A stretch of 6,615 nucleotides of DNA. Origin: a virus. Lineage: Duplodnaviria; Heunggongvirae; Uroviricota; Caudoviricetes. The notes under the pieces are model-generated. The model made no database searches and was not told the origin of the DNA. It saw only the letters and a list, made by a program, of their open reading frames with translations. A program made the position numbers and the translations under genes. This document shows positions 2,282 through 6,338 of the stretch, in pieces; positions within the stretch are counted from its first letter, which is position 1, and the number at the start of each line of letters is the position of its first letter. The stretch lies in the IMG/VR virus record IMGVR_UViG_2609460219_000002; one strand, 5' to 3'.

Positions 2282-2650
2282 TCAGGCGGCCTTGATAGTC
2301 ATATCATCTGAATCAAATATTCCTGATGTATCGATATCGGTAATTCTTATTCCTTCGCTACCATCCATTGGAGGCCATCCTTCCTGACCATTTCCATCAT
2401 TCCAGTCGAACTCACACACAACACCATATGCATTTAAGTCGCTTGAAATTGCTATAAGCAGAGCATGTTGCGCCAGCATGATTAATACAGCATTTAATGC
2501 AGAGCCGTGTTTATTGAGTCGGTATTCAGAGTCTGACCAGAAATTATTAATCTGGTGAAGTTTTTCCTCTGTCATTAAGTCATGGTCGATTTCAATTTCT
2601 ATTGATGCTTTCCAGTCGTAATCAATGATGTATTTTTTGATGTTTGACAT
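2282..2650 (-). CDS. ea10: Ea10 early-region protein, 122 aa
   Basis: Translation MSNIKKYIIDYDWKASIEIEIDHD...DDMTIKAA matches lambda Ea10 with a few substitutions. Confidence 0.85.
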   Translation of the reverse strand: MSNIKKYIIDYDWKASIEIEIDHDLMTEEKLHQINNFWSDSEYRLNKHGSALNAVLIMLAQHALLIAISSDLNAYGVVCEFDWNDGNGQEGWPPMDGSEGIRITDIDTSGIFDSDDMTIKAA

Positions 2651-2666
2651 CTGTTCATATCCTCAC

Positions 2667-2695
2667 AGAAAAAATCGCCCTCACATTAGAGGGCA
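2667..2695 (-). terminator. Putative intrinsic terminator between the ral remnant and ea10 (tL2-like position)
   Basis: Minus-strand RNA would form GCCCUC-UAAUGU-GAGGGC (6-bp GC-rich stem) immediately followed by GAUUUUUUCUG. Sits about 17 nt upstream of the ea10 start. Inferred from sequence only. Confidence 0.45.
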
Positions 2696-2830
2696 AAGAA
2701 GATTTCCAATAATCAGAACAAGTCGGCTCCTGTTTAGTTACGAGCGACATTGCTCCGTGTATTCACTCGTTGGAATGAATGCAGAGTGCAGTATTTATTC
2801 TGTTGTTTATGCCAAAAATAAAGGCCACCA

Positions 2831-2928
2831 TCAGGCAGCCTTGTTATTCTGTTTACCAAGTTATCTGGCAATCATTGCCGTCGTTCGTATTGCCCACACC
2901 ATTGATTCTTATCAGTAGTCGTAGTCAT
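2831..2928 (-). pseudogene. ral: ral (restriction alleviation) remnant, internally deleted and prematurely terminated
   Basis: From ATG at 2928..2926 the frame reads MTTTTDKNQWCGQYERRQ-stop. The first 13 residues match the lambda Ral N-terminus. Ral C-terminal residues (AIRTTAMIAR, then a stop, then LGKQNNKAA-stop) are encoded directly downstream in a different frame. This implies an internal deletion that is not a multiple of 3, plus a nonsense change. Confidence 0.6.
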
Positions 2929-2981
2929 ATGGATAGTCCTGGTATTGTTCCATCACATCCTGAGGATGCTCTTCGAACTCT

Positions 2982-3335
2982 TCAAATTCTTCTTCCATAT
3001 ACCCCCCCCCAAATAAGTGGTTTGCTGCCTAATTTCATTTTCTGGCGACCAACACAAGTCACACCCATTTCACTGCGTGGCTTGCTGTACCATGTGCGCT
3101 GATTCTTGCGCTCAATACGTTGCAGGTTGCTTTCAATCTGTTCGTGGTATTCAGCCAGCACCGTAAGGTCTATCGGATTCAGTGCGCTTTCTACTCGTGA
3201 TTTCGGTTTGCGATTCAGCGAGAGAATAGGGCGGTTAACTGGTTTTGCGCTTACCCCAACCAACAGGGGATTTGCTGCTTTCCATTGAGCCTGTTTCTCT
3301 GCGCGACGTTCGCGGCGGCGTGTTTGTGCATCCAT
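2982..3335 (-). CDS. N: N transcription antiterminator, 117 aa, with divergent and extended C-terminus
   Basis: Internal Met of the 135-aa track ORF gives MDAQTRRRERRAEKQAQWKAANPLLVGVSAKPVNRPILSLNRKPKSRVESALNPIDLTVLAEYH..., the lambda N arginine-rich motif and N-terminal two-thirds. AGGAGA ribosome-binding site precedes the ATG. The C-terminus (…GSKPLIWGGVYGRRI) differs from lambda N and is read through a G9 tract. Confidence 0.9.
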   Translation of the reverse strand: MDAQTRRRERRAEKQAQWKAANPLLVGVSAKPVNRPILSLNRKPKSRVESALNPIDLTVLAEYHEQIESNLQRIERKNQRTWYSKPRSEMGVTCVGRQKMKLGSKPLIWGGVYGRRI

Positions 3336-5437: not shown

Positions 5438-6338
5438 ATGACAAATACAGCAAAAATACTCAACTTCTGCAGAGGTAACTTTGCCAAACAGGAGCGTAAT
5501 GTGGCAGATCTCGATGATGGTTACGTCAGACTATCAAATATGCTGCTTGAGGCTTATTCAGGCGCAGATCTGACCAAGCGACAGTTTAAAGTGCTGCTTG
5601 CCATTCTGCGTAAAACCTATGGGTGGAATAAACCAATGGACAGAATCACCGATTCTCAACTTAGCGAGATTACAAAGTTACCCGTCAAACGGTGCAATGA
5701 AGCCAAGTTAGAACTCGTCAGAATGAATATTATCAAGCAACAATGCGGCATGTTTGGACCAAATAAAAACATCTCAGAATGGTGCATCCCTCAAAACGAG
5801 GGAAAATCCCCTAAAACGAGGGATAAAACATCCCTCAAATTGGGGGATTGCTATCCCTCAAAACAAGGGGGACACAAAAGACACTAATACAAAAGAAAAA
5901 AGAAAAGATTATTCGTCAGAGAATTCTGGCGAATCCTCTGACCAGCCAGAAAACGATCTTTCTGTGGTGAAACCGGATGCTGCAATTCAGAGCGGCAGCA
6001 AGTGGGGGACAGCAGAAGACCTGACCGCCGCAGAGTGGATGTTTGACATGGTGAAGACCATCGCGCCATCAGCCAGAAAACCGAATTTTGCAGGGTGGGC
6101 TAACGATATCCGCCTGATGCGTGAACGTGACGGACGTAACCACCGCGACATGTGCGTGCTGTTCCGCTGGGCATGCCAGGACAACTTCTGGTCCGGTAAC
6201 GTGCTTAGCCCGGCCAAACTCCGCGACAAGTGGACCCAGCTCGAAATCAACCGTAACAAGCAACAGGCAGTCGTGACAGCCAGCAAACCAAAACTCGACC
6301 TGACAAACACAGACTGGATTTACGGGGTGGATCTATGA
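5438..6338 (+). pseudogene. O: Replication initiator O, disrupted as sequenced by a +1 frameshift inside ori iteron 4
   Basis: N-terminal frame (5438-5887, MTNTAKILNF...YPSKQG then GHKRH-stop) and C-terminal frame (...DTKDTNTKEKRKDYSSENSGESSDQPENDL...DWIYGVDL, ending 6338) both match lambda O but differ by +1. Total span is 901 nt rather than a multiple of 3. The shift maps to CAAAACAAGGGGGAC (about 5864-5870). Confidence 0.75.
5786..5920. repeat. ori-lambda: four O-binding iterons plus adjacent AT-rich unwinding region
   Basis: Four inverted-repeat iterons: ATCCCTCAAAACGAGGGA (5786-5803), ATCCCCTAAAACGAGGGA (5806-5823), ATCCCTCAAATTGGGGGA (5830-5847), ATCCCTCAAAACAAGGGGGA (5853-5872). They are followed by AT-rich ACAAAAGACACTAATACAAAAGAAAAAAGAAAAGATTATT. 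Confidence 0.85.

Follow-up and report, generated by a model that had tools for sequence, protein, structure and literature searches.

In phage lambda, by annotation, sieB sits between N and orf28/ral in the pL operon. In the stretch of DNA analysed here (6,615 nucleotides, referred to as the window), a first-pass annotation made from the letters alone reported a broken ral gene, only 53 bp between the N stop and the ral start, and the absence of sieB. The locus raises the question of whether ral and sieB were both lost from a lambda-like ancestor, or whether the two observations have different explanations.

Genomic setting and quality of the window

The window corresponds, over its full length, to contig JNOG01000115.1 (6615 bp) of a draft E. 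coli assembly (GCA_000740625.1), and both of its ends (positions 1 and 6615) are assembly breaks within prophage genes. Based on the ORF list and database matches, it comes from a lambda-like phage with the immunity of phage 434, of which it contains the early-left operon and the immunity region. The exo, bet, gam, kil, cIII, ea10 and N genes, a hex-like gene and a 434-type cI gene were assigned to the minus strand, and the cro, cII and O genes to the plus strand. The closest full-length relatives were 97.5-97.9% identical and comprised lambda imm434, phage Chlobot and prophages of closed E. coli genomes. The next gene downstream of the ral block is ea10 (2282..2650, minus strand), which encodes an intact 122-aa DUF2528 protein according to the ORF list, the Pfam label and the annotation of phage 434. 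The cIII RNA thermometer, a known element (Rfam Lambda_thermo, 88.5 bits), was also intact at 2164-2222 on the minus strand.

The replication gene O was split by a private 1-base insertion at about position 5865 on the plus strand (CAAAACAAGGGGGAC, compared to CAAAACAGGGG in the relatives), and the resulting +1 frameshift left O fragments in the ORFs at 5438-5887 and 5754-6338. This frameshift may reflect either a replication-defective prophage or a further sequence error in the draft contig. Private small indels inside or beside short base runs were also present at about 65, 2668 and 3463. Transitions accounted for 53 of the 77 window-private substitutions, a majority of the kind that natural divergence would be expected to produce.

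ral is a deletion pseudogene

The ral start codon was located at 2928-2926 on the minus strand, with AGGA just before it, and the first 13 codons (MTTTTDKNQWCGQ) matched those of lambda (MTTTIDKNQWCGQ) at 12 of 13; the ribosome-binding site, start and first 13 codons had been retained, as first claimed. Alignment of ral with the lambda, SfI and HK544 sequences revealed a single gap, which follows ...AATCAATGGTG, spans exactly 103 columns and lies in flanks that were otherwise almost fully conserved. This gap separates a 5' remnant (2894..2928, minus strand), which consists of the start and codons 1-12 (13 including the following CAA) up to the TGG of the junction, from a 3' remnant (2831..2893, minus strand), which represents about codons 46-66 of intact ral and is out of frame with the start. 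A gap of 103 bp does not amount to a whole number of codons, so the frame shifts at the junction, and the ORF that begins at the ATG runs for 18 codons to a frameshifted TGA at 2874-2872. A second lesion, GAA to TAA at 2863-2861, lies within the 3' remnant; the original ral stop codon, TGA, was kept at 2833-2831. The gap and these two stops account for the previously reported jump into the C-terminal codons and the premature stop.

Consistent with the alignments, the Ral profiles (Pfam PF11058 and PHROG 1055) covered only positions 1-13 and 47-66 of 66 in the window, corresponding to the 5' and 3' remnants and lying in two different frames. No single ORF in the window spanned the whole 66-position profile in this search; by comparison, lambda Ral was matched at profile positions 1-66 (E=1.6e-48). 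Both nucleotide homology and position identified the gene as ral, since in the alignments it lay in the pL operon 3' of N/orf28 and 5' of tL2a/ea10. Lambda ral (NP_040622, PF11058) has the same pL locus and orientation, and its start, first 13 codons, last 21 codons and downstream terminators are homologous to those of the window at a DNA identity of about 95% or more. Compared to lambda, the window lacks ral codons 14-46 (103 bp), has a shifted frame after the gap and carries one additional nonsense codon. These results confirmed that ral is a deletion pseudogene, as the first-pass annotation had proposed, and that the observation was real and correctly located.

The deletion junction lies in an imperfect direct repeat

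The segment missing from the window has, in intact ral, TGGACAAT on its upstream side and TGGGCAAT on its downstream side, the two lying 103 bp apart. Alignment with intact ral showed that the window retains exactly one repeat copy, TGGGCAAT, at the deletion junction (2889..2896, minus strand). The two sequences form an imperfect direct repeat with 7 of 8 positions matching; exact microhomology is limited to TGG (2896-2894), within which the break point is ambiguous. The GGGCAAT motif that had been noticed at the junction is present, and its real identity is the downstream copy of this imperfect repeat; as an exact match it shrinks to the TGG. The proposal that the deletion occurred between short direct repeats was supported in this modified form, with imperfect repeats bounding the segment and one copy kept.

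The pair offset by 103 was the best 16-nt direct match inside lambda ral (12/16). The same level was reached in 20 of 60 shuffles and is therefore not statistically unusual; since one third of shuffled sequences matched as well, the repeat was rejected as stand-alone evidence for a mechanism. Repeat-mediated deletion of ral is plausible but not proven.

Typing of 40 deleted loci distinguished the junctions TGGACAATACG (24 loci), TGGGCAATACG (15, the window included) and TGGACAATTCAAGCGGCGGCAATG (phage E212 only), which represent different crossover points along the imperfect repeat, all in the same 103-bp register. The TGGACAAT-type junction was present in 24 of the 40 typed loci and the TGGGCAAT-type junction in the window, ECP1, 5CRE51 and DLL7555. 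In phage E212 (MZ043897; locus L009, about 1201-1251) the crossover was located some 12 bases further along the repeat, which suggests either an independent deletion or gene conversion.

orf28, and not spacer, lies between N and ral

The distance of 53 bp between the N stop and the ral start was reproduced, with the N ORF ending at 2984-2982, the ral ATG beginning at 2928 and the interval occupying 2981-2929. However, this interval is not spacer but the 5' part of an intact gene, orf28, and the distance is so short because a lesion at the end of N, described below, causes read-through of that gene. orf28 (lambda lambdap47; 2912..2998, minus strand) was identified from the lambda and SfI annotation and by PHROG 16060, which it matched over the full profile (positions 1-28 of 28, E=7.1e-19). 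It encodes 28 amino acids, MEEEFEEFEEHPQDVMEQYQDYPYDYDY, and its last 17 nt overlap the start of ral. The translation was identical to that of lambda orf28 (NP_040623), and the frame was open in all 47 loci inspected. The product has 12 acidic, no basic and 7 aromatic residues and a net charge of -12; a search of the literature found no function for orf28. The first-pass annotation had itself raised the objection that related phages might naturally carry an intact short ORF at this position, and the objection holds in part, in that lambda and SfI have orf28 there.

The UniRef entry Q38269_LAMBD names orf28 'Ral(Restriction alleviation66)', apparently by mistake. In E. coli P276M (L013) and one further locus (L019), orf28 had an in-frame 6-nt deletion that left 26 aa ending in ...YPYDY, beside a deleted ral.

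The absence of sieB reflects an alternative module order

No sieB gene was found between N and orf28/ral in the window, where neither the ORF list nor the alignment contained an ORF of about 184 aa antisense to N, and no sieB fragment was left at the N/orf28 junction. The 3' end of N was the HK544 allele (...GSKPLI, compared to ...GKSIPLI in lambda) and joined orf28 base for base. HK544 has the same sieB-less junction, as do prophages of E. coli DLL7555, SC406, NC22 and others; among approximately 107 intact-ral loci, the upstream context ...GCAGCAAACCACTTATTTGAGGTGA and the lambda/sieB context had similar frequencies. Because the interval is a known module-exchange site, the absence of sieB represents an alternative architecture and not decay. 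The earlier statement that sieB is absent between N and ral was correct, but its loss in this lineage was unsupported, the HK544-type junction being a normal module alternative.

HK544 (NC_019767) resembles the window in its identical 108-aa N, in the direct passage from the 3' end of N into orf28, and in having no sieB. It differs from the window in having an intact ral, the native N TGA and GAGGTGAT as the ribosome-binding site of orf28. In lambda, in contrast, N and orf28 are separated by the sieB module, and the C-terminus of N is different.

A private run of nine G residues alters the end of N

The N antitermination gene (2982..3335, minus strand) was assigned from the ORF list and by Pfam N36 (PF11438, E=1.8e-26). 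Its first 108 codons were identical to those of HK544 N and were followed by nine extra codons (WGGVYGRRI), to give a product of 117 aa. HK544 N ends in ...GSKPLI*, with its TGA inside TTTGAGGTGATATATG, which also holds the orf28 ribosome-binding site. At this position the window has TTTGGGGGGGGGTATATG, in which a G9 homopolymer (C9 on the plus strand; 3002..3010, minus strand), detected in the alignments and in a homopolymer scan, replaces the usual TGAGGTGAT. The change amounts to three substitutions to G and two extra G within 10 bases. The G9 run abolished the GAGGTGA that held the last two bases of the N TGA and the Shine-Dalgarno sequence of orf28; the native stop, expected at 3011-3009, was converted from TGA to TGG, and orf28 has G9 in place of its usual ribosome-binding site. 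The stop at 2984-2982 is thus a substitute and not the one native to N.

The homopolymer scan found no other long homopolymer in the window. All of the 46 other loci typed, together with every upstream context listed in a wider set, carried TTTGAGGTGA(T/G)AT or a close variant. A search for the G-run pattern CCACTTATTTGGGG...ATATGGAAGAAGAATT gave no matches in IMG/VR, the GTDB representative genomes or the JGI metagenomes; a natural family of G-tract variants consequently had no support in the three collections. The 117-aa N product (KFH74794.1) was on record from this contig alone. RNA folds of the N/orf28 junction were no better than those of shuffled sequences for either the G9 or the HK544 version, and an Rfam scan detected only the known cIII thermometer and no structured RNA at this junction. 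At a run length of G8 or G11, N and orf28 would be joined in one frame. The G9 run may be genuine, a mutation of a prophage in decay, or it may result from a sequencing or assembly error.

The ral remnant has diverged, and its 3' end overlaps a terminator-like hairpin

Among 19 distinct deleted haplotypes, nucleotide diversity was 0.061 in the ral remnant compared to 0.012 in orf28 outside its overlap with ral, which points to relaxed constraint on the remnant. In intact alleles, the 103-bp segment was at least 99% identical to that of lambda in 721 of 795 records. The terminator scan and RNA folding placed an intrinsic-terminator-like hairpin (2842-2821) and its T tract at 2812..2842 on the minus strand, overlapping the last ral codons and stop; the predicted fold had an energy of -14.8 kcal/mol (z=-2.8). 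The need to encode this hairpin in the same bases accounts for the survival of the last ral codons. Downstream of ral, a conserved block (2668..2796, minus strand) was identified from the Sf6 annotation, the terminator scan and alignment as the Sf6 'boundary sequence bsq4'; it ends in a lambda tL2a-type terminator, whose hairpin the terminator scan located at 2696-2675 on the minus strand. The match of the window to Sf6/SfI at about 2796-2668 covers both bsq4 and the tL2a terminator.

The deleted allele is widespread in E. coli prophages

The same-register ral junction was found in about 101 of 5426 complete E. coli genomes (approximately 2%), with differing neighbours. Only full-length matches of at least 90% identity were counted, weaker matches being gapped alignments to intact ral. 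The same junction was present in 36 IMG/VR contigs and, among isolated phages, a same-register junction was found in ECP1, which has the junction type of the window, and in E212, which has the other crossover point. The intact 103-bp segment was found in 793 genomes and 55 phage records; the deleted share was roughly one ninth of ral loci, or about 11% of ral-bearing E. coli prophages. Several deleted copies are labelled 'antirestriction Ral family protein, frameshifted' by NCBI. The frameshifted pseudogenes OI124_RS26565 (NC22) and CA593_RS28865 (5CRE51) and that of ECP1 (NC_049926) have the same 103-bp deletion and register, with orf28 intact. They differ from the window in their neighbouring modules, and they have neither its G9 run nor its TAA. 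Since about 100 finished E. coli genomes already contain the same broken allele, with annotation, the ral finding is an ordinary one and the deleted allele is already known from public genomes, although a literature search found no paper describing it.

Over 288 shared flanking bases, 38 deleted and 104 intact alleles were compared, and the deleted-intact distance (2-8 differences) was about the same as the deleted-deleted distance; free recombination in the flanks keeps this comparison from being decisive on the number of origins. Each of the three codon backgrounds for lysine 7 seen in intact ral also occurred among the deleted alleles. The several junction types hint at more than one origin, while the flanking haplotypes cannot separate recurrence from a recombined old allele. 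From the sequences compared, a recurrent same-register hotspot, rather than one old allele, would be an unlikely though not negligible account of the 103-bp deletion, and the same low probability covers the accompanying reading of the G9 run as a genuine, slippage-prone tract. If ral were repeatedly knocked out with orf28 kept, selection might tolerate or favour prophages that lack Ral, and orf28 might be the selected gene of the block.

Origin of the locus

The window very probably derives from an imm434 E. coli prophage with HK544-type gene order, in which ral was killed by a 103-bp repeat-flanked deletion, the remnant drifted and a separate, private G9 run arose. The proposed pL operon order would be N, orf28, ral, the terminators and ea10, without the sieB module. 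The 103 bp would have been deleted between the best-matching imperfect repeats in ral, TGGACAAT and TGGGCAAT, likely by replication slippage or short-homology recombination. Removal of codons 14-46 together with the frame shift would leave no Ral protein, and the phage, when its DNA is unmodified, would presumably be unable to stimulate modification of that DNA by EcoKI-type (type IA) systems, as judged from the published biology of Ral. The ral remnant would then have drifted and gained its TAA, while orf28 and the terminators stayed intact. The G9 run would be a separate lesion, private to the contig, that removed the N stop and altered the orf28 ribosome-binding site.

The first-pass annotation had instead read the locus as accessory-gene decay, in which a lambda-like N-sieB-orf28-ral ancestor lost both sieB and ral. 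The closest full-length relatives do have sieB and an intact ral, and other decay in the contig, namely the O frameshift, the lost N stop and the nonsense codon in the ral remnant, is in keeping with such a history. Nevertheless, an HK544 N allele that abuts orf28 base for base, as it does in many prophages, points to module exchange and not to a scar, and no sieB remnant is present; a common loss of both genes is accordingly very unlikely. It is just as improbable that the short ral, the G9 run or both arose as artefacts, from collapsed reads of related prophages or from homopolymer errors in the draft. The contig is a whole short piece of a draft genome whose strain may hold several lambdoid prophages, so that consensus errors, or the assembly collapse that the first-pass annotation had considered, are possible; the G9 lesion was unique among all loci and collections searched, and the private O frameshift and the other private small indels in or beside short base runs are of the kind that such errors would leave. 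However, about 100 closed genomes, and isolated phages as well, have the exact deletion junction, so that no artefact is needed to explain it, and the excess of transitions among the window-private substitutions also argues against error. Because the same junction is found in so many closed genomes, the ral deletion allele is real biology.

The history of deletion, drift and a separate G9 lesion was also weighed against a functional role for the remnant, in which the 3' part (MVWAIRTTAMIARELGKQNNKAA) would encode a 14- to 23-aa 'Ral family protein'. NCBI has annotated such remnant ORFs in DLL7555, in an O55:H7 strain and in 2013C-3492. Against this, the remnant ORF is cut to 13 aa by the TAA in the window and is cut by a TAG in the O55:H7 type, its diversity is five times that of orf28, and the terminator hairpin in the same region accounts for the retained last codons. 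A functional short Ral peptide was therefore rejected as hardly credible, the remnant ORF being interrupted in several lineages and evolving approximately five times faster than orf28.

Consequences for restriction and annotation

With Ral, type IA systems such as EcoKI methylate the first strand faster, and unmodified phage can thereby escape restriction (PMC12707154). CRISPRi mapping showed that ral, orf28 and sieB are dispensable for plaque formation and that ral matters only when type I restriction is active (PMC10695390). A phage with the deleted ral that arrives unmodified on EcoKI-type hosts should consequently plate poorly and would otherwise be viable, as is ECP1. For annotation purposes, this prophage copy cannot make Ral, and orf28 rather than spacer lies between N and ral. 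The annotated 117-aa product of N depends on a G9 run that is unique to this draft contig, and it should be relied on only if reads support it. A modest wider point is that deletion of ral is common while the overlapping orf28 is conserved.

In Sf6 and SfI, by comparison with the window, an extra small gene (gene 36) lies between N and orf28, and ral is intact or C-terminally truncated. In SfI (locus L001, 969-1148) ral is annotated as 59 aa, and the same stop was found in many IMG/VR loci (L054-L173). Approximately 17 of 107 otherwise full-length ral alleles had this premature stop at codon 60 (ELG*QNNKAA), suggesting a common variant of Ral with a truncated C-terminus.
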